A stretch of 64,000 nt of DNA. Origin: Halarcobacter sp. Its GTDB lineage: Bacteria; Campylobacterota; Campylobacteria; Campylobacterales; Arcobacteraceae. The translations under genes and the position numbers were made by a program. Location: the NCBI GenBank assembly GCA_963676565.1, contig OY781089.1, positions 3,264,001 through 3,328,000 of the forward strand. The letters run 5' to 3'. Below, in pieces: positions 1 through 61,096 of the stretch. Under the pieces are notes generated by a model that did not search any database, had not been told where the DNA came from, and was given only the letters and a program-made list of their open reading frames with translations. Each line of letters opens with the position of its first letter. The first letter of the stretch is position 1.

Positions 1-856
1 CTTCCGATTTGTTTTCAATTTCACTAATTAGATTATCAAACTCATCGGTTAAGCTTTCAAGTTTCTCTGAAGCTAGTTTTGATTGTTCTAAAGCATTTTG
101 TGAATAATTTACTGCACTAGAAACTTTAGAGATAAATTGATTATAGTTATTTGCCATTTCAACAAACTCTGTTTCACCTTCAACCTTTATTGGTGCCATT
201 TCATCAATGTTTTTGCTTCCAATCTCTTTAGCTTTTTCAATAAACTCATTTGCATGGGATTGTATTTGTCTTAACTGTATTAAAGAATATAGTGAAAAGA
301 TAAATAAAAAACCAAAGGCTGTATATTGAAAGTTTTTAATAAAATTTGTTTTCTCTTCAATATAATTAGTATAAAGGGTTACTATCTCATCTACTTCAAA
401 AAGTAGTTCATTATTTGCTTCATTAAAATAAAGTAATAATGAGTTGATTTTTTGTGTATCATTTTTTAAAATTGCTTCTTTAAACTCTAAAGAATTCTTA
501 TAAAAGACATTCCATAAAACTTGAACTTTTTCTATTTGAGATTTGATATCATGAACTGGAGCTTCAGTAATATCAAGACTTTTATTTCCATCTTTTAATG
601 TTGCTAATCCAAAGATAAATTGAGAAATAGCTTTATCCATCTCTGTAAAATTTTTTGATTTTGTTTGATTTATAAAATATATATTTTTAGTAATTCTTTG
701 AGTAAGCATTCTTTGCTTACCTGCAATATTTACAATCAAGGCATCTTTTGTATTTTTGTAATTTAAATGTATTGTAATTGAAATAACTGCAAATATTGTA
801 ATCATCAATAATGCACCTATAACTTTTATTTTATTACTTACACTTTGAGTTTTCAT
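1..856 (-). CDS. NarX/PilJ-type periplasmic nitrate/nitrite sensor membrane protein (TM-sensor-TM-HAMP-coiled coil); 3' end runs off window
   Basis: Not in ORF track; hand-translated MKTQSVSNKIKVIGALLMITIFAVISITIHL...IVNIAGKQRMLTQRI (P-box-like)...TAFGFLFIFSLYSLIQL...EGETEFVEMANNYNQFISKV; ATG overlaps the upstream TGA (ATGA 853-856). Confidence 0.8.
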   Translation of the reverse strand, partial: MKTQSVSNKIKVIGALLMITIFAVISITIHLNYKNTKDALIVNIAGKQRMLTQRITKNIYFINQTKSKNFTEMDKAISQFIFGLATLKDGNKSLDITEAPVHDIKSQIEKVQVLWNVFYKNSLEFKEAILKNDTQKINSLLLYFNEANNELLFEVDEIVTLYTNYIEEKTNFIKNFQYTAFGFLFIFSLYSLIQLRQIQSHANEFIEKAKEIGSKNIDEMAPIKVEGETEFVEMANNYNQFISKVSSAVNYSQNALEQSKLASEKLESLTDEFDNLISEIENKSE

Positions 857-1518
857 ATTCCAACTCCCATGTATATTCCTTTTAATTCATCATAATTATT
901 TATTATTATCTTTCCTCTTTCTATTTCAATGGTTCCATTTCTAGAAAGTCTTTTTAAAACCCTTGATAGAGTTTCTGGTTGGATATGTAATAGAAGTGAT
1001 ACTTCTGTTCTTTTTAAATCATTAAACATATCTAAATCATTTATCAACATAAATGCAACCTTTGATGTTGCATCAAAAACCAATTCTCGGTTTATAATAC
1101 ATTGAAGTTGCTGATTTTTATATATTAATTCTTCAACAAATTTCATCACAAGTTCATTTTGATACAAAAAACTCTCTTTAAATTTTTTATAATCAATTGA
1201 TAAAAGTGAACTCTCTTTTATAAATTCAGCATTTGAAAAACATCTAACTTGATTTTCTTCTAAACTAGAAAGTTCTGATATCATCGTATTGGCATATACA
1301 TAATATAAAAAAATCTCATTGTCATATTTATCAATTTTATAAACTTTTATTTGTCCCTCAAGCAAAAATAACAATTTATCCGTAGTATCAGCTTCGTAGT
1401 ATAAAATTGAATCTTTTTCATATCTTGAAATATGACTAATCTCTTTTAATACCTTTAATTCCTCTTCACTTATTTGTGAAAAAAGATTGATACTTTTTAT
1501 AGCTTCTTCTAATTTCAT
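853..1518 (-). CDS. Crp/Fnr family (Nss/Dnr-like) transcriptional regulator
   Basis: cNMP-binding-type domain plus HTH with PETLSR recognition helix; no FNR Cys cluster. Confidence 0.9.
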   Translation of the reverse strand: MKLEEAIKSINLFSQISEEELKVLKEISHISRYEKDSILYYEADTTDKLLFLLEGQIKVYKIDKYDNEIFLYYVYANTMISELSSLEENQVRCFSNAEFIKESSLLSIDYKKFKESFLYQNELVMKFVEELIYKNQQLQCIINRELVFDATSKVAFMLINDLDMFNDLKRTEVSLLLHIQPETLSRVLKRLSRNGTIEIERGKIIINNYDELKGIYMGVGI

Positions 1519-1545
1519 TTTTCTCCCTGTATCCCCAACTTATAT

Positions 1546-1587
1546 ATTGTATTAAAAAAAACTTTTAATGTCATTGACATATATCAA
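1546..1587 (-). promoter_or_regulatory. Nss/Fnr-type box (1574-1587) with -10 TACAAT (1546-1551)
   Basis: TTGAC-ATAT-ATCAA; 22 bp to -10 on minus strand. Confidence 0.75.
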
Positions 1588-1630
1588 CTTCAGAATAACA
1601 TTTTAAGGAATCTGTTTATATACTTCTTAC

Positions 1631-2272
1631 ATGAAAACAATAAATAGATTACAAAAGCATGAAATTTTTAATGGATTAGAGCAAAGTGAACTAGAAAAAA
1701 TTGCTCAAATAACAATAACAAAGAATTTTGAAAAAGACCAAATAATATTCTATGAAACAGAAGAGCCTATATACTTTTATTTTCTAAATAATGGTATAGC
1801 TAAAGTTTATAAGGTTGATTCTAAAGGGAATGAGATAGTCTTACATAATTTTGCAGCTCCAACTATGATAGCAGAAATGGCATCAATTGAAAACTTTAAA
1901 TTCCCTGCAACTTGTGTTGCTATGGATAATTGTGAGTTTCTTCTAGTAAAAAAAGAGGAGTTTGTAAATCTTTTAAAAACTAATCCTGATATCTCTTTTC
2001 ATGTGATAAAATCCCTAACAAGAAAAATTAGAGGAATGGAAGGTCTTTTAAATAGAAGTTTAATTTTTGATGCCACAACAAAAGTTGCCCACTATATTGA
2101 TGAACGTACCAATGATTTTATTACAAAAAAAAATAAAGAAGTGGCAAATGAACTTAATATGACTCCAGAAACTCTTTCAAGAGTTCTTAAAAAACTTAAA
2201 GATTTAAATATCTTAGATAAAGATAGAAACCTAATAAATAAAGATAAATTACAAACTTTCTTAGACTTTTAA
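1631..2272 (+). CDS. Crp/Fnr family NssR-like regulator
   Basis: cNMP-binding-type domain, FPATC motif, TPETLSRVLK helix. Confidence 0.9.
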   Translation: MKTINRLQKHEIFNGLEQSELEKIAQITITKNFEKDQIIFYETEEPIYFYFLNNGIAKVYKVDSKGNEIVLHNFAAPTMIAEMASIENFKFPATCVAMDNCEFLLVKKEEFVNLLKTNPDISFHVIKSLTRKIRGMEGLLNRSLIFDATTKVAHYIDERTNDFITKKNKEVANELNMTPETLSRVLKKLKDLNILDKDRNLINKDKLQTFLDF

Positions 2273-2276
2273 TTCA

Positions 2277-2318
2277 TTGATTTATATCAATGAAATTATT
2301 TATATTTTCATATATTAT
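2277..2318 (+). promoter_or_regulatory. Nss/Fnr-type box (2277-2290) with -10 TATTAT (2313-2318)
   Basis: TTGAT-TTAT-ATCAA inside a longer palindrome TTCATTGAT...ATCAATGAA. Confidence 0.85.
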
Positions 2319-2340
2319 TCTTATAAAAAAAGGATGATAT

Positions 2341-2766
2341 ATGAGTGTAAATGAATTTATGACAAATGACCACAGAGCTTGTGACGAACAATTTGCAAAT
2401 CTTGAAAATATGATTGACCAAGGAAATTTTGACAATGGAACATCTATGTTTGAAGAATTTCATGAGCATATGATTAGACACTTCGATATGGAAGAAAAAG
2501 TTATGTTCCCAATGTTTAATGATGCACAAAGTGAAGGTTGTAATCCAACTCAAGTTATGATAATGGAACATAATCAAATGAGAGCTTTATTAAATAAAAT
2601 GAAAAGTGCTCTCGAAGTAAAAGATAAAAACTCTTTTTTAGGTCTAAGTGAAAATCTAATGTTTTTAGCTCAACAACATAATATGAAAGAAGAACAAATT
2701 ATGTATAACATGGTTGATAATGCTTTAGATTCACAAGTAGTTATAGAAAAGATGAACGAGATTTAA
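2341..2766 (+). CDS. Hemerythrin-like (HHE) di-iron protein
   Basis: H / HFDMEE / EH / HNMKEE ligand pattern; SD AAGGA. Confidence 0.85.
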   Translation: MSVNEFMTNDHRACDEQFANLENMIDQGNFDNGTSMFEEFHEHMIRHFDMEEKVMFPMFNDAQSEGCNPTQVMIMEHNQMRALLNKMKSALEVKDKNSFLGLSENLMFLAQQHNMKEEQIMYNMVDNALDSQVVIEKMNEI

Positions 2767-2767
2767 A

Positions 2768-3028
2768 ATGTTAAAAGAGATTTTACTTGATTGTACAATG
2801 CTTGAATCACCAGAACCATTAAACTTGGTAGTTCAAAATCTTGGAAATATATCTGAAACAAGTTATATAAAAATGATTCATAGAATGCAACCAATGATGT
2901 TATTTAATATCTTAAATCAAAATGGTTTCAAATATATAACTTTAGAAAAAAACAATCAAGTTGAAATCTATATATTTAAAGAAGAATTTTTTAAGGAGCA
3001 AAAAAGATGTATACAGGACTTAGCTTAG
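2768..3028 (+). CDS. DUF2249-family small protein
   Basis: LDCTMLESPEPL...IHRMQPMMLFNILNQNGFKY resembles the DUF2249 consensus. Confidence 0.65.
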   Translation: MLKEILLDCTMLESPEPLNLVVQNLGNISETSYIKMIHRMQPMMLFNILNQNGFKYITLEKNNQVEIYIFKEEFFKEQKRCIQDLA

Positions 3029-4266
3029 ATCAAGCTCCACCATTTGAAGCACCTTTAAAATTTTTCTTAGCAGCTCCACTTTTTGCAGTTATTGCTGGCT
3101 TTATTCTATTTTTTTCAGATGATTTAAATATGTATACACGCCAAACAATCGCTATTGTTCATATTTTAACAATTGGATTTATTCTAATGACTATATTTGG
3201 AGCTTTACTTCAGATGCTTCCAGTAGTTGCAGGAGCCGTTATAAAAAAACCAAAAATTATAGCAAATACAACTTTTACTTTTTTAGTAATAGGAGTTATA
3301 ACATTTTCTCTAGGTTTTTATTTTTATGAAAAGATTGCTTTATTTATTTCATCAATATCATTACTAATAGCATCAATTGTTTTTTTAGGTATTTGTTTAT
3401 ATGAACTAATAAAAGTGAAACCTAAATCTTTTATTGTTCAAGGTATAATTTTTGCTATTTTTTTTGCACTAATAGCTATCTTAATTGGTGTTCATATGGG
3501 GATTTCCCATGCAAGAGAAAATATTAGTGCTTCATATTTTATTTTTACAAATATCCACTATAATTTTATTTTTGTAGGTTTTATTTTTTTACTTATTGCC
3601 TCTATTACCTTTCAAGTAGTTCCAATGTTTTGGGTAACTAATCCATTTGAAAAAACAAAACAAAAATTTATAATCTACTTTACAGTAAGCTTACTACTTG
3701 CATTTTCTGTATTTTTATTCTTAGGATTTGAAGAGTTGTTTTTTTATAAAATATCTTTATTTTCTATTTGTACATATTTTGCATATCAAACAATAAAAAC
3801 TATAATAAGTAGAAAAAGAAAATTAAAAGATTTATCTGTTTATTACTATATTACAAGTATGGTTTTTCTAATCCTTGGTTCTTTATATTTTTTAGTTTCT
3901 GAATATATAAATTTTAAAATTGAGATTTTAGGAGTGTTGTGGGGGATTGGTTTTATAATGTCACTGATGAATGGGATGTTATATAAAATAGTTCCTTTTT
4001 TAGCATGGTTTCATCTAAGCTCAAAAGGTTTTTTTGATATTCCAACAATAAGAGATATGATTCCACCAAAACATATTGAGTTTCAATTTTATTTACACCT
4101 AAGTGCAATTGTAATTTTTTTATTGTTTTTAATTTTTAATTATCTAATTTTATTAAAACTTGCTGCAATAATTTTTGCTATTTCAAATATATATTTGTTT
4201 TTTAATCTATTTAAAGCAGCAAAAGTATATTTAAATTTTGATACAAGTCAAAGTCAACTAAACTAA
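3007..4266 (+). CDS. Polytopic membrane protein of the type found with DUF2249/NnrS-like NO-response genes
   Basis: About 12 hydrophobic segments; His-containing motifs (VHILTIG, IHYN, YKIVPFLAWFH). Confidence 0.7.
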   Translation: MYTGLSLDQAPPFEAPLKFFLAAPLFAVIAGFILFFSDDLNMYTRQTIAIVHILTIGFILMTIFGALLQMLPVVAGAVIKKPKIIANTTFTFLVIGVITFSLGFYFYEKIALFISSISLLIASIVFLGICLYELIKVKPKSFIVQGIIFAIFFALIAILIGVHMGISHARENISASYFIFTNIHYNFIFVGFIFLLIASITFQVVPMFWVTNPFEKTKQKFIIYFTVSLLLAFSVFLFLGFEELFFYKISLFSICTYFAYQTIKTIISRKRKLKDLSVYYYITSMVFLILGSLYFLVSEYINFKIEILGVLWGIGFIMSLMNGMLYKIVPFLAWFHLSSKGFFDIPTIRDMIPPKHIEFQFYLHLSAIVIFLLFLIFNYLILLKLAAIIFAISNIYLFFNLFKAAKVYLNFDTSQSQLN

Positions 4267-4279
4267 TTTAGTATACAAT
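4238..4279 (+). promoter_or_regulatory. Nss/Fnr-type box (4238-4251) inside upstream CDS, with -10 TACAAT (4274-4279)
   Basis: TTGAT-ACAA-GTCAA; 22-bp gap. Confidence 0.65.
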
Positions 4280-4304
4280 TATTACATCCAAAGAAAGGAT
4301 TAAT

Positions 4305-4547
4305 ATGTATAAAATAGTTTTAGCAATAACTTTTATAATAGTTAGCTCTTTTGCAAATGATAATTTACATAAGAAAAACATTCAAAAACAAATGGAAAAA
4401 GAAAAAAAATATAAAGAAGAACAAAAATTCTATCAAGGGAAAAACTACGATTTGGATAGTTTTAAAGTTGATGAGAACTCTTTAAAGAACATCCCTGTTC
4501 AACCAAACTACAATGATGATTTTGATATGGATAATACCTATGACTAA
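4305..4547 (+). CDS. Small secreted hypothetical protein with acidic C-terminus
   Basis: Sec signal peptide (SFA|N), SD AAAGGA, followed by a terminator-like hairpin. Confidence 0.75.
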   Translation: MYKIVLAITFIIVSSFANDNLHKKNIQKQMEKEKKYKEEQKFYQGKNYDLDSFKVDENSLKNIPVQPNYNDDFDMDNTYD

Positions 4548-4576
4548 AAGTAGAAAACTAAATTTCCTACTTCTTT

Positions 4577-7237
4577 TTAATCAAAAATCTTTATACTAGG
4601 ATTGATATTTTCCCATCCCTCTTTTAATCCTTTTTCTAAGGTAAAGCTATCTTTTGGGCTTGCAACTTCATTATAATTATATGGTGTTACTACCATTAGA
4701 CCACCTTTTATCAAAGAAGTAAAAGTGTTTGTCTCAATTTCTGTTCCACTAAAAAGTGAAAATTTCATTTTAAAACCACTTATATCATGAAAAGTTGAGT
4801 TAGTTCTAACAAAGTGTTTATATTTATCATAAATCAAACAATAAATATATGTTTTTGAACCATCAAAACTAAGTTTTATTTTATTAACTTTCCCTATTTG
4901 AACATTTTTATAATAGATTGGTGCTTCTTTATTTATTTTTGTTGGTTCAACTGAGACAACAGTTAAAACCTCGCCACTTTCATTTGCATAAATATCCTCT
5001 AATGAGTCAACACCAGTAAATCTATTATCTGTTACTTTACTAGAACTTGTTACAACACCAATATTTACAGGCATGATAGTTGAACCTATATTTTGAATCT
5101 CATTTAATGAAATTTTAGGCTTCTTAAGATAAAAAATTGTTCCTTTTTTTGCAAATTTCTCATAATCTTTAGAAATCTGGATTTTTACTAAAACTTTATT
5201 TTTATTTGTTAAAGATATATTTGTAACTTTTCCAACCTCTACTCCCTTATAAAGTAGTTTAGAAAAGTGTGTTTTTAAGCCTTCAACATCGTCAAAAGTT
5301 ACATTTAAAGTATTTACAGAATTAATCATATCATCATAAGAAGCATAGATTTGATATCTTGAAAACTTTTGTTTTGAACTATTATCAAGGTTGATAGAGC
5401 CATTTAATAGTGAGCTTAGATTATCAAGTTCAAAAATAACACCCCCTAAAGAGGCATCAAATTTTATTGGAGCCTTTTTGTAAAATCTACTATTTTTATT
5501 TAGATATTTTTTATACTTGTTATAAATAAATATTTTTACTTTTGATTCTTTTTCACCAAAATCAATACTTTTTATATATCCAATCTCTTGGTTCTTGTAA
5601 TTTATTGTTTGTTTAGCTTTTAACTCAAAACTATTATCAAAATAAACATTAGCAACAAAACCTTTTGTTTTTAGTTTTTTTAATTCATCAACCTCTTTAT
5701 AGGTTTCAAAAAGTTTAAAAGTTCTTCTTTTTGATTTAAAATCTCCAATATTTACAAGGGAAATACCTCCATTTAAAAACGGTTTTACACCTGAAAAGTT
5801 GACATTAAAATCAAAGTTTTTTAACTCAATTAATCTTGAACTCATATCATAAAACATAGTTTTATCATTTACCAAAGATTTATATTTAGATTTTATAAGA
5901 ACTGATATTTTTACTTTTTTAAAATCATCACTTAAAGTATAATCTAAAACTTCTCCAATGGGAATATTTTTATAATAAATCTTGCTATCTTTTGTAATTG
6001 AATTTAAGCCATTACTATTTAGTGTAATGATTAAATCATCATCTTCTTTTGTAGTTTTTTTATTTTGAATTTCAAAAAAATACTTTGCTTTACCTTTTTT
6101 ATAATCTACTGATATATAGTTTCCACTAACAACTGTATTTAGATTTTTTATACCATCAATTCCAACTTCTACACTATTTAAGTAAAATTTTGAGTTTTCT
6201 GAAAGTAAATAGTCATAATCTTTATACACAAAAGCTTTTGCAATAACGCTGTTATTGTTTAAGTGAAACTCTTTTATTTTTCCAACTTCAATCCCTTTAT
6301 ACATGATTGAAGTTCTCTCTCCTATCCCATTTGCAGTATCAAACTTCAAGTTTAAAAAGGTTTTTTCTTCAAGTTCTTCTTTATTTTCATATAAAATATA
6401 AGACTCATCCTCTTTCATTTTATTAGCATCTTTTTCTAATGTTAAAACATTTATCCCACCAATTAAAGCAGAATAAAAAGAACTAACTTCTAGTTTCACT
6501 CCACCTGGACCAAAATTAACATCTAAAGCTTTATTCATATAAAACTTTGAACTACTATTTACAAGATGATTGTATCTATCATAAATATAAGCTTTTAAAT
6601 ATACTTGCTCATCTTTGAATACCTTTGAAACAATTTCACCAATTTGAAATTTATTATAAAAAATTGGTGTTTCAACCTCAACAAAATCAGCTCTATTTGA
6701 TAAGATTGAGACATAATAACCATTTCCATTTGTTTCTAAACTAGGTTTAGTATCAAGCCCTTCAAACTCATATTTAGCCTTAACATCTTTATACTTTTTC
6801 AAGTCATTGTATTTTGGAAGAACTTCAATTTTATTACCACTTAACAAAGTCCCTAATCCAGAAACCTTTGTTAAAGAGATAGTAGGTTTTTTAATCCAAA
6901 AACTTGAACCCTCTGTTGCAATAAAATCTGCAACATCACTATTTACAAGAATATTTACTTTGACACTATTTAAATCATTAATATGTATTTTGGTTACTTT
7001 CCCTAATTGAAGCCCTTTATATTCTAAAGGAGTAACTCCTTCTTTTAGACCTTCTGCACTTTTAAAAGTAACAGTAATATTAGTACCTTTTTTGGTATAA
7101 CTTTCATATGCAATCCACCCTAATATACTTAAAATTATCAATGGTAAAATCCAAATAAAAGAAAGAGTTTTTTTCTGTTTTTCTTTAGGTTTGTAAACTA
7201 CAGTTTCTATATTATCTTCAAATTTTTCACTACTCAT
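4577..7237 (-). CDS. pqiB: LetB/PqiB-type MCE lipid transport protein (7 MCE domains)
   Basis: N-terminal TM WILPLI; seven repeats of the Y(K/N)xxx(I/V/L)Gx(V/I) MCE motif; likely start ATG 7237. Confidence 0.85.
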   Translation of the reverse strand: MSSEKFEDNIETVVYKPKEKQKKTLSFIWILPLIILSILGWIAYESYTKKGTNITVTFKSAEGLKEGVTPLEYKGLQLGKVTKIHINDLNSVKVNILVNSDVADFIATEGSSFWIKKPTISLTKVSGLGTLLSGNKIEVLPKYNDLKKYKDVKAKYEFEGLDTKPSLETNGNGYYVSILSNRADFVEVETPIFYNKFQIGEIVSKVFKDEQVYLKAYIYDRYNHLVNSSSKFYMNKALDVNFGPGGVKLEVSSFYSALIGGINVLTLEKDANKMKEDESYILYENKEELEEKTFLNLKFDTANGIGERTSIMYKGIEVGKIKEFHLNNNSVIAKAFVYKDYDYLLSENSKFYLNSVEVGIDGIKNLNTVVSGNYISVDYKKGKAKYFFEIQNKKTTKEDDDLIITLNSNGLNSITKDSKIYYKNIPIGEVLDYTLSDDFKKVKISVLIKSKYKSLVNDKTMFYDMSSRLIELKNFDFNVNFSGVKPFLNGGISLVNIGDFKSKRRTFKLFETYKEVDELKKLKTKGFVANVYFDNSFELKAKQTINYKNQEIGYIKSIDFGEKESKVKIFIYNKYKKYLNKNSRFYKKAPIKFDASLGGVIFELDNLSSLLNGSINLDNSSKQKFSRYQIYASYDDMINSVNTLNVTFDDVEGLKTHFSKLLYKGVEVGKVTNISLTNKNKVLVKIQISKDYEKFAKKGTIFYLKKPKISLNEIQNIGSTIMPVNIGVVTSSSKVTDNRFTGVDSLEDIYANESGEVLTVVSVEPTKINKEAPIYYKNVQIGKVNKIKLSFDGSKTYIYCLIYDKYKHFVRTNSTFHDISGFKMKFSLFSGTEIETNTFTSLIKGGLMVVTPYNYNEVASPKDSFTLEKGLKEGWENINPSIKIFD

Positions 7238-13772: not shown

Positions 13773-13797
13773 TCTTAATCCTTTAAACTGCATTGAA

Positions 13798-13839
13798 AGT
13801 ATAAGAATTTTTTAAAGAAGTTTCCTTGACCTAAATCAA
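13798..13839 (-). promoter_or_regulatory. nrfH promoter: Nss box (13826-13839) with -10 TATACT (13798-13803)
   Basis: TTGAC-CTAA-ATCAA; 22-bp gap. Confidence 0.8.
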
Positions 13840-19131: not shown

Positions 19132-20304
19132 TTATGATTTAATTCTAATCAATGTTTTTGCATATCTTATGCTCCAGATAATAAACATAAATATCCACAG
19201 CCATGAACTAAGATGTAAAAATCCCATATAAAAAGAAGATTCATTTAAAAATAAGACAGAAGCTAGAACTCTTGTAACAACAACTACCTGAGTTAATCCA
19301 AACACAAATTTTGTAATTTTATCAGCAACTATTTTTTGAGCAGGAACTGCATGTCCCATCACCACCCTACTTCCAAAGCCTATAAGCAATGTTGCTACGA
19401 ATCCTAAAGCAAAAATATGAAGTGCTAGTTTTAAAGAATAAATTTCAAATATAGATTCAATAAATAATGCAACAAAACCAATAATAAGCCAAATAAATGA
19501 TATAACCAATATAAAAATAATAGCAGGCGATTTTTTATAAATATTTAGATTCATCACAATATATGTAAAAAACAATGTAGATATAAAAGATGTGATTTTT
19601 AACAGAAATAAAAATTCAAACTCTAAAGAGATACCTAATGCCAAAAATAGCCCTACAGAAATCTCCCTTATATATTTTGGCTTATCCCAAGAGATTGTTT
19701 GCATATATGAACTATAAAAGGCTGGTATCATTCTTTGTGCAACTAAAAATACCAAACTAACTAGATATGCAAAAAATATTAATAAAGATAGGTTCTTTTG
19801 AAAAAGAACTTCTAAAATTAAAAAAATAGCTCCAAATAAAAAAACTAGATTTAAATATATACTATCCTTTTTAAATGAAACATGACCTTGTTTTATAGTA
19901 TAATAGAATACTTTCACAAAATAAAACATTGTAAAAGATACTAAAATCTTACCTATATTTGTAAAACCTAATAAAGATAAAATAATTCCTATTTGAAAGA
20001 CAAACCATGTATTTAAATAAATCTTCTTATCAATCTCTTTAGAGCCATTAAATTTTGGCATTACTGTTATTAAAAAACCTAAAAAAGCATTTGTAAATAC
20101 TGCATAGTTTAATCCAAAGCCATGTATTAATGAAAAATCTAAAGAGACTTTTCCTAAAAATGAAATAAATGTTAAAAGCATAATAACTAATGCGAAAAAT
20201 ATTGAACTAATAAAATATAATTGATGGGATTGAGAAGTAAATCTATCCCACCATTTCTCTTCTATTTTTGGTGTAAAACCATTGGGGTTTGCTGAAAATT
20301 GCAT
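19132..20304 (-). CDS. nnrS: NnrS family NO-response membrane protein
   Basis: IHGFG, FLGFLIT, RMIPAF, ALHIFALG, SRVVMGH motifs. Confidence 0.8.
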   Translation of the reverse strand: MQFSANPNGFTPKIEEKWWDRFTSQSHQLYFISSIFFALVIMLLTFISFLGKVSLDFSLIHGFGLNYAVFTNAFLGFLITVMPKFNGSKEIDKKIYLNTWFVFQIGIILSLLGFTNIGKILVSFTMFYFVKVFYYTIKQGHVSFKKDSIYLNLVFLFGAIFLILEVLFQKNLSLLIFFAYLVSLVFLVAQRMIPAFYSSYMQTISWDKPKYIREISVGLFLALGISLEFEFLFLLKITSFISTLFFTYIVMNLNIYKKSPAIIFILVISFIWLIIGFVALFIESIFEIYSLKLALHIFALGFVATLLIGFGSRVVMGHAVPAQKIVADKITKFVFGLTQVVVVTRVLASVLFLNESSFYMGFLHLSSWLWIFMFIIWSIRYAKTLIRIKS

Positions 20305-20336: not shown

Positions 20337-20378
20337 ATAATAACAGTATTGATAATGTTTATCATTGATATAAATCAA
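20337..20378 (-). promoter_or_regulatory. nnrS promoter: Nss box 20365-20378, Fur-like box 20350-20364, extended -10 20337-20345
   Basis: TTGAT-ATAA-ATCAA; TGATAAT-G-TTTATCA; TGtTATTAT. Confidence 0.75.
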
Positions 20379-20396
20379 GATGATTTAGATAAGGCT

Positions 20397-20438
20397 TTGA
20401 TTACAATCAATAGTTTTTTTAGATTTTTATATTATGAT
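20397..20438 (+). promoter_or_regulatory. Nss box (20397-20410) with -10 TATGAT (20433-20438)
   Basis: TTGAT-TACA-ATCAA; 22-bp gap. Confidence 0.78.
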
Positions 20439-21529: not shown

Positions 21530-22810
21530 TTACCATTTAGTATGAGTTAAATCACACTGTATCATTTCACCTCTATGTGCTGGAGTTCCAGGTTTTTCAG
21601 CAGATTCACATAATAAAGTTGTGCCATAATCATTTCTTTTATCATGTGCATTACTTCTTGCCCATACTGAAACTATTGCTCTTTCTTCTGGTTTTGCTTC
21701 ACAATCACCATCTACTTCAAAAGCATGAATAGTATTTTGATGGAAATACATTAATGGGTCTTTATCATAGCTTCCTTCTGCCCACATCTCATGTTCGTGC
21801 TCTTGTCCTGCATCAAATTGAACTCTTCTCATTTTATCATCAACTTTTACAGTTTTTAATAGCTTTGAATCCTCTTTTATTGCAAAACTTTTAAACTGTT
21901 TTGTACAAGCTGGAACTCTCATATTATAATAGATTTCAGAGATTGCATGATTATGATAAGGGTATAGTGTGTCTACTGATTGTACAGTCATACCAACCTC
22001 TGCACCCACTTTTTGTCCATTTATTTCGTCTATTCTTAAAAGACCCCAATGTCCAAAAATTTCTGCATATGCATATCCTCCACGAATATTAAAAAAGTTT
22101 TTGTCATTTCTTTTGCTCTCTTCAGCATACATTGGGAACCAACCTGCTGCTGCCCATAGGTTTGGTAATGCATTTGCACTTATATCATAAGGAAAAGCTG
22201 AAGGCATTTTAACTTCATCTCCTGTTACCATTTTATGAAAGTTTTGAGTAAAACTTTTTCCTAATTTTTGTACCTCTTTATTTGTAACTTTTTCTTTGAA
22301 AAACTCTTTAAATGTCGTACGATTAAGCCATTTTGCCACAGGTGAAGATTTTTCCATCTCTTTACTTGGACTATATATCCAATTAACATCTTCTCTTGCA
22401 CTAAAGCATGCTTTTGCTTTATCTGGATTGTTTACTACTTGATAGATGTTTTTTACCATTAGTTTCATATCTCTTCTATCCATAATACACATTTTTCTGT
22501 TTCCATTAGTTGTGTCAATTACAGCTTCATCTGAATTTAAACATTCACTATTTTCAGGTGTTGTTAACGCTATGGCATAGGCATTTAAATATTGAAGTGT
22601 TTCATCCCATAAAATATCTATGTATTTCTGTTCTTCTTTAGAATAATCATTTTTTGTAGGTAAACATTTAAACTCTGCATTAATGATGTCATTTTTATCC
22701 AAAAAATTTGGAAGTTCACTTGCTTGTGAATTAACCATCAATGATAAGCCCAATATCAAAGATGATACACCTTTTACATAAATTTTTTTTAACTTTTCTT
22801 CTTTTCTCAT
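21530..22810 (-). CDS. dddY: Periplasmic DMSP lyase DddY (cupin)
   Basis: Signal peptide, Cys-containing N-terminal cap, YPYHNHAISEIYY (HxHxxxExY) and HQNTIHAF cupin motifs; about 400 aa mature. Confidence 0.85.
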   Translation of the reverse strand: MRKEEKLKKIYVKGVSSLILGLSLMVNSQASELPNFLDKNDIINAEFKCLPTKNDYSKEEQKYIDILWDETLQYLNAYAIALTTPENSECLNSDEAVIDTTNGNRKMCIMDRRDMKLMVKNIYQVVNNPDKAKACFSAREDVNWIYSPSKEMEKSSPVAKWLNRTTFKEFFKEKVTNKEVQKLGKSFTQNFHKMVTGDEVKMPSAFPYDISANALPNLWAAAGWFPMYAEESKRNDKNFFNIRGGYAYAEIFGHWGLLRIDEINGQKVGAEVGMTVQSVDTLYPYHNHAISEIYYNMRVPACTKQFKSFAIKEDSKLLKTVKVDDKMRRVQFDAGQEHEHEMWAEGSYDKDPLMYFHQNTIHAFEVDGDCEAKPEERAIVSVWARSNAHDKRNDYGTTLLCESAEKPGTPAHRGEMIQCDLTHTKW

Positions 22811-55667: not shown

Positions 55668-55785
55668 AGCTGGCAGCGGCCTACGTTTCCACAAGGGGAC
55701 CCTGCAGTATTATCAGCGCAGAAGTGCTTGACTTCCAGGTTCGGAATGGAGCTGGGTATTTCCACTTCGCTAAAACCACCAGCAA
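55668..55785 (-). rRNA. rrf: 5S rRNA (ends approximate)
   Basis: Conserved CCATTCCGAACCTGGAAGTCAAG; terminal helix GCTGGTGG/CTGCCAGC. Confidence 0.93.
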
Positions 55786-55970
55786 TATGAGTAAAGAAAG
55801 TAATTAGTAATTGGTTACTAGTAATTAGTAACGTTACTCTCTTTACTCACATTAGGTTCTATGAGTTTTAAAAGTTAAATGTTAAAAGTCTTTGCGTTAT
55901 TGCTAACGTCTTACACAATTTGTATTAAATGCTATACATTTAATAAGATAGTAAACCAAGAAATATATAA

Positions 55971-58848
<2,878 letters not shown>

Positions 58849-59222
58849 TAAAAGTATCTCTACTTCTACCTTATTTGAGAAATTAACTAATTAAAGTTAA
58901 TTGCTTTTTTGAATAATTATTCCTTGGCTACTATCTTATTAAACATATTGCTATATTAAATAAAACAGTTGTGTCTATCATTAATTAGATATTTAATTAA
59001 AAATATCTGATTTAGATATGAAATTTTTTATTTTTTAAATCATCTTCATACGAAAGATTAATTTAAACGAAAAAAATTAAAGACTTTAACATTAAATTTT
59101 TAAATAACATAATCATTTTTCAATGATTGTTTAGATCATAAGATCTAATATAAATTCAAATTCATTTGAACTTATATTAAATCTATTTATTTGATTTTTA
59201 CTTTTATAGTTTATTTAATAGA

Positions 59223-59298
59223 TGGTGGAGATAAGCGGGATCGAACCGCTGACCTCCTGCGTGCAAGGCAGGCGCTCTCCCAGCTGAGCTATATCCCC
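59223..59298 (-). tRNA. tRNA-Ala (TGC), ITS
   Basis: GGGGATATAGCTCAG...TTGCACG...TCCACCA. Confidence 0.96.
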
Positions 59299-59332
59299 AC
59301 ATATAATCTTATTATCAAAGATTATTTAATAA

Positions 59333-59409
59333 TGGTGGGCCTACCAGGACTTGAACCTGGGACCTCACGATTATCAGTCGAGCGCTCTAGCCAGCTGAGC
59401 TATAGGCCC
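59333..59409 (-). tRNA. tRNA-Ile (GAT), ITS
   Basis: GGGCCTATAGCTCAG...CTGATAA...CCCACCA. Confidence 0.96.
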
Positions 59410-59577
59410 ATTTGTCACCTATTTTTTAAATAATCTTTATAAACCGAACACAATAAACTATCTATTTTTTTTCTCATCTTATTTGCTACATTTGTACGCT
59501 TAAAAAATCTACGATTTTCCAAGGTAACTGTCGTGTTGTAGCTTCTGAGCTAAGAAACGAATCTTAGCTCTTTCTCT

Positions 59578-61096
<1,519 letters not shown>

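Follow-up and report, generated by a model that had tools for sequence, protein, structure and literature searches.

How do Campylobacterota without NarX-NarL or NarQ-NarP detect nitrate? Sulfurimonas and the Arcobacteraceae rank among the major nitrate reducers of sulfidic habitats in the sea and the subsurface, and the only regulators studied in those Campylobacterota are Crp/Fnr proteins of the Nss type. According to a 2021 review, the way in which NssA, NssB and NssC sense nitrate, nitric oxide (NO) and nitrous oxide needs further study (PMC8139620). The question is raised by a gene pair at the left edge of a 64,000-nucleotide (nt) stretch of contig OY781089.1 from a Halarcobacter species (assembly GCA_963676565.1, positions 3,264,001 to 3,328,000), called the window below. 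The pair consists of a gene for a Crp/Fnr-family regulator, here named crpA, and a translationally overlapping gene for a membrane receptor that carries a nitrate-binding motif. We propose, with a probability of about 60%, that these two genes constitute an operon for a phosphorylation-free nitrate switch, which would control nap and nrf via CrpA by direct contact between receptor and regulator. The features of the pair and its promoter region are listed by window position; residue numbers are those of the receptor.

2..856, minus strand: receptor gene, codons 1-285 of 331 (ATG at 856, 3' end open at the window edge; PF13675 match and identity to protein P0029)
764..823, minus strand: first transmembrane helix (TM1), about residues 12-31 (sequence; continuous helix in the AlphaFold2 (AF2) model; Foldseek match to a NarQ sensor-TM-HAMP fragment)
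332..763, minus strand: four-helix-bundle periplasmic sensor, residues 32-175 (Pfam PilJ at residues 34-135; predicted local distance difference test (pLDDT) 80-90; Foldseek)
698..733, minus strand: N-box/P-box VNIAGKQRMLTQ, residues 42-53 (agrees exactly with the published N-box; Arg49 corresponds to the Arg that binds nitrate)
275..331, minus strand: second transmembrane helix (TM2), about residues 176-194 (sequence; model helix 134-214)
116..274, minus strand: degenerate HAMP-like segment, residues 195-247 (colinear with the HAMP domain of P0292; Foldseek match to a NarQ fragment over 248 columns)
2..115, minus strand: start of the putative C-terminal helical output tail, residues 248-285 (P0029 sequence, low-pLDDT model; last 46 residues off the window)
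853..856, minus strand: ATGA start/stop overlap, crpA TGA (855-853) over receptor ATG (856-854)
1518..853, minus strand: crpA, Crp/Fnr-family (Dnr-like) regulator of 221 amino acids (cNMP_binding, HTH_Crp_2, DNR match, AF2)
1574..1587, no strand: TTGACATATATCAA, Crp/Fnr (Nss/Dnr-type) palindrome between crpA and crpB (intergenic, 1519-1630), common to their divergent promoters
1631..2272, plus strand: crpB, second Crp/Fnr regulator, divergent, ca. 33% identical to crpA

Receptor architecture

From the N- to the C-terminus the window fragment of the receptor reads MKTQSVSNKIK, a hydrophobic stretch at about residues 12-31, VNIAGKQRMLTQRI, a second hydrophobic stretch at about residues 176-194, and a helical tail. 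Because MKTQSVSNKIK is positively charged, the N-terminus is predicted to be cytoplasmic. The complete protein was found in the protein collection as P0029, a sequence of 331 amino acids that is 100% identical to the fragment across all its 285 residues and by its length places 46 residues beyond the window edge. The PilJ domain (PF13675) was detected in the fragment with an E-value of 7e-17 and 62 bits and in P0029 with 65.4 bits, the gathering cut-off being 26.6. It was the sole match when full-length P0029 was compared with Pfam at E ≤ 10; HisKA, HATPase, MCPsignal (PF00015), GGDEF and HAMP were all absent. A homologue search returned 170 proteins at E ≤ 1e-3, and the best 120 of these 170, from which lengths and domains were taken, measure 325-335 amino acids with PF13675 as the sole domain. 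Since P0029 and its homologues show PilJ alone, the receptor is truly free of kinase and methyl-accepting chemotaxis protein (MCP) domains and is predicted to be a two-TM protein with a PilJ/N-box sensor and without enzymatic output. In databases its homologues are named 'type IV pili methyl-accepting chemotaxis transducer N-terminal domain-containing protein' or, wrongly, 'nitrate/nitrite-specific signal transduction histidine kinase'. An initial annotation, made from the letters of the window, had read an unannotated minus-strand open reading frame (ORF) with TM1, TM2, a HAMP-like segment and a coiled coil from 856 to the edge. It had seen neither an H-box nor an MCP hairpin in the roughly 45 residues after HAMP, and a signalling domain of either kind in the unseen C-terminus would have refuted its reading. 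The ORF with its PF13675 match and the identical 331-residue protein bear it out on both points.

The N-box, [IVL]-[ND]-x-A-G-x-Q-R-M-L-[ST]-Q, was defined for nitrate-binding PilJ domains, and Arg61 of McpN hydrogen-bonds nitrate (PMC6381276). The P-box of NarX and NarQ has the same G-x-x-R core (PMC8199190). In an alignment of 70 receptor-family sequences N43, A45, G46, K47, R49, M50, L51 and Q53 are invariant. The AF2 model of the receptor (mean pLDDT 71.5, with 80-90 across residues 20-190) shows two TM helices with a four-helix bundle between them. Its top Foldseek matches are the NarQ sensor-TM-HAMP fragments 5jgp and 5iji, with a TM-score of 0.77 over 248 columns, and the TM-score against the ligand-binding domain of McpN (6gcv) is ca. 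0.8. Because the periplasmic bundle has a complete N-box, it most likely binds nitrate, possibly nitrite.

CrpA and its coupling to the receptor gene

CrpA has a cNMP_binding domain (PF00027, E 4e-10) followed by HTH_Crp_2 (PF13545, E 1e-8) and no receiver domain. Of the sequences in the PDB, that of DNR (3dkw, E 3e-11) matches it best, and in the AF2 model (pLDDT 86.7) the fold of the effector domain is intact. Cys93 is invariant and Cys140 near-invariant in an alignment of CrpA orthologues. A profile alignment places Cys93 at the cyclic AMP (cAMP) site residue Ser83 of Escherichia coli CRP, and the adjacent Arg82 position is not conserved. Binding of cAMP by CrpA is unlikely because the conserved Arg of the CRP cAMP site is lost and Cys93 lies at the site. 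At least 120 crpA homologues carry generic Crp/Fnr names only.

The ATG of the receptor gene is preceded at 9 nt by GGAG. Upstream of crpA, a −10-like TACAAT (a consensus match only) lies at 1551-1546 on the minus strand, and a sigma-70 promoter scan around 1400-2400 gave 8 matches against 6.5 expected, which is no enrichment. If transcription of crpA starts as predicted from TACAAT, the box at 1574-1587 would be centred ca. 41.5 nt upstream of the start. The further proposals of the initial annotation, namely a receptor ATG that overlaps the Crp stop codon, a Crp partner without a receiver domain and a promoter box in front of the pair, agree with the overlap at 853-856, the two-domain composition of CrpA and the exact TTGA-N6-TCAA sequence at 1574-1587.

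Conservation of the pair

A scan of one genome per species returned 329 receptor relatives, and the best 80 of these 329 loci were inspected. They are labelled Arcobacteraceae, Halarcobacter, Aliarcobacter, Malaciobacter and Sulfurimonas, apart from a few implausible labels. A same-strand Crp gene stands immediately upstream of the receptor gene in 73 of the 80 loci, which means 73 of the 73 in which upstream sequence exists; in the other seven (L006, L023, L024, L045, L052, L063 and L073) the receptor gene is at a contig edge. The upstream Crp proteins are 51-95% identical to CrpA and 29-39% identical to CrpB. In each of the 73 loci the crp stop and the start of the receptor gene lie −8 to +8 nt apart, and the genes overlap in 40 of them, the 4-nt overlap of the window being found in 31. 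The distribution was as follows:

Gap −8 nt: 1 locus
Gap −4 nt: 31 loci
Gap −1 nt: 8 loci
Gap 0 nt: 5 loci
Gap +1 nt: 4 loci
Gap +2 nt: 12 loci
Gap +3 nt: 4 loci
Gap +4 nt: 1 locus
Gap +5 nt: 1 locus
Gap +6 nt: 1 locus
Gap +8 nt: 5 loci

Receptor identity across the inspected loci is only 42-64% and the coupling to crp is unbroken. Clustering of the flanking ORFs of the 80 loci revealed no further signalling gene conserved beside the pair, and no response regulator. The second regulator gene is not kept next to the pair: a crpB-like gene (61-95% identity) occurs in L001-L004 and a weaker match (39%) in L058. These results confirm that the receptor/Crp pair first noticed in the window is real and beyond chance. 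Linkage to a Crp gene, the lack of which the initial annotation had named as a refutation, is conserved wherever a locus leaves room for it.

One protein of 551 amino acids (P0001), the only such case among 28 proteins of 500-2000 amino acids at E ≤ 1e-3, joins Crp and receptor in one polypeptide of compatible topology. Its junction LGYKMKK corresponds to the L008-type junction TTAGGATTATAAGATG (L008:5970-5990) minus one T; either a frameshift fused the two genes naturally or the sequence is in error. We rejected it as strong Rosetta-stone evidence, as it is a single sequence from one contig with a junction one T short.

Several variants of the locus were noted. Binning errors probably explain why the contigs L006, L011 and L027, on which a Campylobacterota-type pair is found, bear the labels Bacteroidales, Helicobacter pylori PMSS1 (a metagenome-assembled genome) and Desulfosporosinus. 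In 'Candidatus Sulfurimonas ponti' (L080:5992-7152) the receptor ORF has 386 amino acids, the family match ends at residue 234, and the tail is diverged or frameshifted; this locus was excluded from the alignments. In L005, L007 and L013 (7048-8073) a 341-residue protein with a Crp-like part directly follows the receptor, giving the order crp, receptor, crp-like. In 25 Sulfurimonas-type loci (e.g. L029:3838-5091) the divergent gene upstream of crpA encodes a 4HB_MCP-GGDEF diguanylate cyclase; this gene is absent from Arcobacteraceae loci and may provide a link to cyclic di-GMP (c-di-GMP) signalling.

Linkage to nap genes

The flanking-ORF clusters that recur widely are the pair itself (80 and 70 loci) and NapA, NapG, NapH and NapB (43-52 loci), the NapA cluster being identified by NF010055 with 1425 bits. 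Across the whole set of flanking ORFs, nap genes alone recur, beyond the pair, in more than 25 loci. In 37 of the 73 loci napA, followed by napG, napH and napB, lies directly downstream of the receptor gene on the same strand, and in 12 further loci nap genes occur elsewhere within the 6-kb flanks. This linkage, which could not be seen from the window, lends support to a role in nitrate signalling.

The closest relative of the window, L001, is colinear with window positions 1-6853 at 89.8% nucleotide identity. It shares the upstream genes of the window (crpB, hemerythrin, DUF2249 and membrane protein) and has napAGHB directly downstream of the pair. Its receptor gene ends at 6996 and is followed by the boxes TTGACTTAAGTCAA (7087) and TTGACACAGGTCAA (7176) and then by napA with a twin-arginine signal start. 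By this colinearity, the nap operon of the window genome itself very probably lies just off the left edge. A terminator scan called none after the receptor gene of L001, though an inverted repeat with a T-run is visible. In L002 (7001-7441) and similar loci, where nap is convergent to the pair, a 147-residue protein with a PAS domain is encoded behind napD and napL; the denitrification cluster of Nitrosophilus labii likewise includes a PAS protein (PMC11539149, legend of Figure 5).

TTGA-N6-TCAA boxes

The sequence TTGA-N6-TCAA is the Nss/Dnr-type consensus (PMC11539149). An exact box occurs between the receptor stop codon and napA in 25 of the 37 loci with napA directly downstream, where ca. 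0.02 would be expected per 350 nt at the background rate of the window. Exact boxes number 7 in the window, where 3.8 would be expected, and at least 7 were found in 11 of 100 shuffled sequences, which makes the presence of a box alone the weaker evidence. Five of the 7 are intergenic, and intergenic DNA makes up 15% of the window (binomial P = 0.0014). Besides the box between crpA and crpB, the following are of interest:

2277..2290, no strand: TTGA-N6-TCAA box upstream of a hemerythrin/DUF2249/membrane-protein operon
13826..13839, no strand: TTGA-N6-TCAA box just upstream of nrfH-nrfA-ccsBA (nrfI-like)
20365..20410, no strand: pair of exact TTGA-N6-TCAA boxes, at 20365 and 20397 with a spacing of 32 nt, upstream of the NnrS gene listed next
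19135-20304, minus strand: NnrS gene (PF05940, E 8e-40)

The nrfH-nrfA-ccsBA (nrfI-like) genes are a candidate member of the regulon; NrfH was identified by TIGR03153 (162 bits) and NrfA by NF008339 (705 bits). Only ca. 40 nt separate the centre of the nrfH box from the first ATG of the nrfH ORF downstream of it (both within 13793-13839). Since the NrfH model aligns from residue 21 of the ORF, the true start of nrfH is probably further downstream.

The cytoplasmic tail

In the AF2 model the part of the receptor behind TM2 continues as helices 229-287 and 294-323, joined by a turn with an invariant S293-E294-D295 sequence, at pLDDT values of 40-60. This turn and the last helix belong to the part beyond the window edge and are known from P0029. 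Within the HAMP-like segment E230, N239 and F241 are invariant in the 70-sequence alignment. Averaged by region, the majority fraction is 0.96 for the N-box, 0.74 for the last helix (298-323) and 0.62 for the periplasmic domain, so that the last helix is second only to the N-box in conservation. Because it is conserved above the sensor domain, the tail is better understood as an output or interaction surface than as a decaying remnant.

A profile built from 36 members of the receptor family found 4599 matches at E ≤ 1e-3 and 112 at E ≤ 1e-30 among 1.84 billion representatives. A Pfam scan covered 18 proteins out of 150 listed profile matches. Ten of the 18 are PilJ-HAMP-MCPsignal chemoreceptors. 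One of receptor-like length (P0164, 320 amino acids) has PilJ only, and two with lengths near that of the receptor (P0243 and P0272) gave no PilJ match. P0159 and P0160, of ca. 450 amino acids, have two PilJ domains each, and in P0159 the profile also matched the receptor tail. Residues 4-325 of P0029 align colinearly to residues 3-315 of the MCP P0292 with 26% identity and an E-value of 9e-22. The Pfam HAMP domain of P0292 (197-249) corresponds to receptor residues 195-247, and its MCPsignal domain begins at 331. Judged by this alignment, the receptor tail is a degenerate HAMP segment plus the membrane-proximal stretch of an MCP-like coil that stops short of the signalling hairpin.

Two related protein types were observed in these searches. 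Proteins of ca. 450 amino acids (among P0159-P0223) have two PilJ domains and then a receptor-type tail, and Campylobacterota-type proteins of ca. 560 amino acids (among P0002-P0028) have a signal peptide followed by four N-box PilJ domains in tandem, without TM helix or output.

Proposed mechanism and alternative explanations

The initial annotation had suggested that the sensor may control the Crp factor directly, by contact or membrane sequestration. In the mechanism that we favour, a receptor dimer would bind nitrate (possibly nitrite) at the periplasmic dimer interface, as McpN, NarX and NarQ do, and the signal would travel via TM2 and the degenerate HAMP segment to the short conserved helical hairpin. 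This hairpin would occupy the usual place of a kinase or MCP signalling domain and contact the co-translated CrpA dimer directly. By its gene organisation the pair is co-transcribed, translationally coupled and, from the position of the box relative to the predicted crpA start, probably autoregulated, as sigma/anti-sigma pairs are. Because of this resemblance in gene organisation, release from sequestration is the favoured version: without nitrate the receptor would keep CrpA inactive at the membrane, and nitrate would release it. Freed CrpA would then bind TTGA-N6-TCAA boxes and activate napAGHB, nrfHA and its own promoter. Alternatively, CrpA might be activated at the membrane. The architecture of the receptor, its lack of an enzymatic output, the conserved coupling to Crp, the nap linkage and the boxes are observed; which ligand is bound, whether the two proteins touch and in which direction regulation runs are inferred. 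That the pair represents a new mode of transmembrane signalling, in which an enzyme-less receptor passes a periplasmic nitrate signal to a Crp/Fnr factor by contact, we suggest tentatively, as a claim a little short of an even chance.

Several observations weigh against this mechanism. The HAMP segment of P0029 escaped detection by Pfam at E ≤ 10, and the pLDDT of 40-60 in the tail leaves the hairpin uncertain. The contact between tail and Crp is deduced, and no computed result shows the tail binding Crp. A complex prediction with two CrpA chains and two receptor tails (195-331), using paired 70-row alignments, scored 0.07 against a mark of 0.32, with the partner's own fold uncertain, and speaks neither for binding nor against it. 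Nitrate binding is argued from the N-box motif alone. DNR, the best solved relative of CrpA, is a regulator with its own effector domain, and CrpA with its invariant Cys93 in the pocket region may do sensing of its own or receive a second, thiol- or haem-based input. An exact box precedes crpA in only 18 of 71 loci. No nap gene was found in the available flank of 24 of the 73 loci, 11 of which have less than 2.2 kb downstream, and the nap operon of the window genome is deduced from L001.

There are rival explanations. The receptor might sense nitrate and pass the signal to a third protein whose gene lies away from the pair, such as an orphan histidine kinase, a diguanylate cyclase or, through mixed dimers, a chemoreceptor array, the link to Crp being co-expression or a second messenger. 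Its nearest relatives of known output are indeed PilJ-HAMP-MCP chemoreceptors, and the 4HB-GGDEF gene of the 25 Sulfurimonas-type loci would fit a route via c-di-GMP, which some Crp-family proteins bind. However, no third signalling gene is conserved in both Arcobacteraceae and Sulfurimonas loci, the GGDEF gene being absent from the former, and the receptor is without the MCP hairpin needed for CheA/CheW arrays. Gaps of at most 8 nt in every locus and overlap in more than half of them are, moreover, typical of binding partners made in a fixed ratio, and we consider a third protein unlikely. CrpA could also be a self-contained sensor of NO, haem or redox state, like DNR or NssR, and the receptor its target or an accessory (a truncated chemoreceptor remnant or a modulator) that feeds no nitrate signal to it. 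Such a role would suit the match to DNR, the intact effector-domain fold, the two conserved cysteines, and the boxes before genes of NO-stress type (hemerythrin/YtfE-like and NnrS). Yet a remnant would not be expected to retain an invariant N-box and a tail conserved above the sensor at 42-64% identity, nor to keep its translational coupling to a single Crp orthologue throughout the 73 loci, and the placement directly upstream of nap argues for nitrate. This explanation, too, is improbable to us.

Hardly likely is a membrane-anchored transcription complex resembling ToxR or CadC, in which Crp would stay bound to the receptor and be switched on at the membrane. The fusion protein P0001 has a topology compatible with it, the C-terminus of Crp and the N-terminus of the receptor both being cytoplasmic, but a sequencing error or frameshift is just as likely an origin of this one protein among 28, and the two ORFs are separate in 73 of 73 loci.

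If the preferred reading of a contact-operated nitrate switch is true, the pair would be the missing nitrate sensor of Campylobacterota without NarXL or NarQP and would explain how an Nss-type regulator 'senses' nitrate. CrpA would be the first Crp-family member with a membrane receptor, rather than a small molecule, as effector. For Sulfurimonas and Arcobacteraceae the pair provides a two-gene candidate nitrate sensor.

Other genes in the window

The operon behind crpB (2341-4266) encodes a hemerythrin/YtfE-like protein, a DUF2249 protein and a polytopic membrane protein of 419 amino acids with a weak COX1-like match and no confident family; it looks like a nitrosative-stress module. A DddY-type dimethylsulfoniopropionate lyase is encoded at 21533-22810 (NF053571, 783 bits), as would suit a marine host from the Arcobacteraceae. 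The minus strand carries a complete rRNA operon at 55668-61096 (16S, two tRNAs, 23S and 5S), where the short listed ORFs are spurious.

Comparison with known systems

We found no description of the crpA-receptor pair in a literature search that left aside subscription journals, bioRxiv supplements and the supplements of PMC6381276 (Table S1 and the list of 941 N-box proteins). A one-component regulator like ToxR or CadC was rejected as a description of the system, as Crp and receptor have separate ORFs in the window as well as in the 73 loci, and the single fused form, P0001, is possibly a 1-nt error.

The initial annotation had called the receptor a NarX-type sensor. This holds for the P-box and the four-helix fold: as in NarX and NarQ, TM1 is followed by a four-helix periplasmic sensor with the P-box Arg and by TM2. 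The HAMP-like segment behind TM2 is suggested by the alignments with P0292 and the NarQ fragment and missed by Pfam. It does not hold for the closest relatives of known output, which are PilJ-HAMP-MCP proteins of the McpN type and not NarX kinases. The NarQ equivalog model of NCBIfam gave the receptor 24.6 bits, against a cut-off of 553, and matched the N-terminal part only. In contrast to NarX and NarQ, the receptor has no S-helix, GAF-like, DHp or HATPase domain, and its adjoining partner is of the Crp type without a receiver domain rather than a NarL or NarP protein. The proposed targets of the pair, nap and nrf, are those that NarX/NarQ and NarL/NarP control in E. coli. With McpN (PA2788) the receptor shares the PilJ domain, the exact N-box and the fold of the ligand-binding domain, whereas it ends about where MCPsignal would begin and possesses neither the signalling hairpin nor an interface for CheA and CheW.

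CrpA resembles NssA, NssB and NssC of Wolinella succinogenes and NssR of Campylobacter jejuni, which regulate nap, nrf and nos, in being a Campylobacterota Crp/Fnr protein associated with TTGA-N6-TCAA boxes at nap and nrf. Nitrosophilus labii, too, has a gene for an NssA-like Crp upstream of nap (PMC11539149). CrpA differs from the Nss proteins in having a proposed sensor partner; none is mentioned for them in the available text of PMC11539149 and PMC8139620.

Nitrate signalling without a kinase also occurs in NasS-NasT, where a nitrate-binding protein sequesters an ANTAR antiterminator, and in NasR, a NIT-ANTAR protein. These systems share with the proposed receptor-CrpA switch a direct protein-protein or intramolecular coupling. 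They differ from it in that their sensors are cytoplasmic, the folds of sensor and regulator are others, and the targets are RNA. NasR is mentioned in PMC8199190.

If signalling by contact is true, the pair would add a third type of output for N-box/P-box sensors beside kinases and chemoreceptors, a new mode of control for a Crp-family factor, and a compact nitrate-responsive module for synthetic biology. Signalling by binding and release at the membrane is established for anti-sigma/extracytoplasmic function (ECF) sigma pairs such as FecR-FecI, for Mlc-PtsG and for MtlR-EIIMtl. We know of no Crp-family member that is controlled by binding to, or release from, a membrane sensor. Like transmembrane anti-sigma/ECF sigma pairs, which are co-transcribed, often translationally coupled and autoregulated, the receptor and CrpA combine a sensor with a transcription factor; unlike these and the Mlc and MtlR systems, they use another transcription-factor family and another sensor fold. 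In the pair a known sensor domain and a known family of transcription factors are joined by a probably direct coupling, of which the literature search above gave no description.

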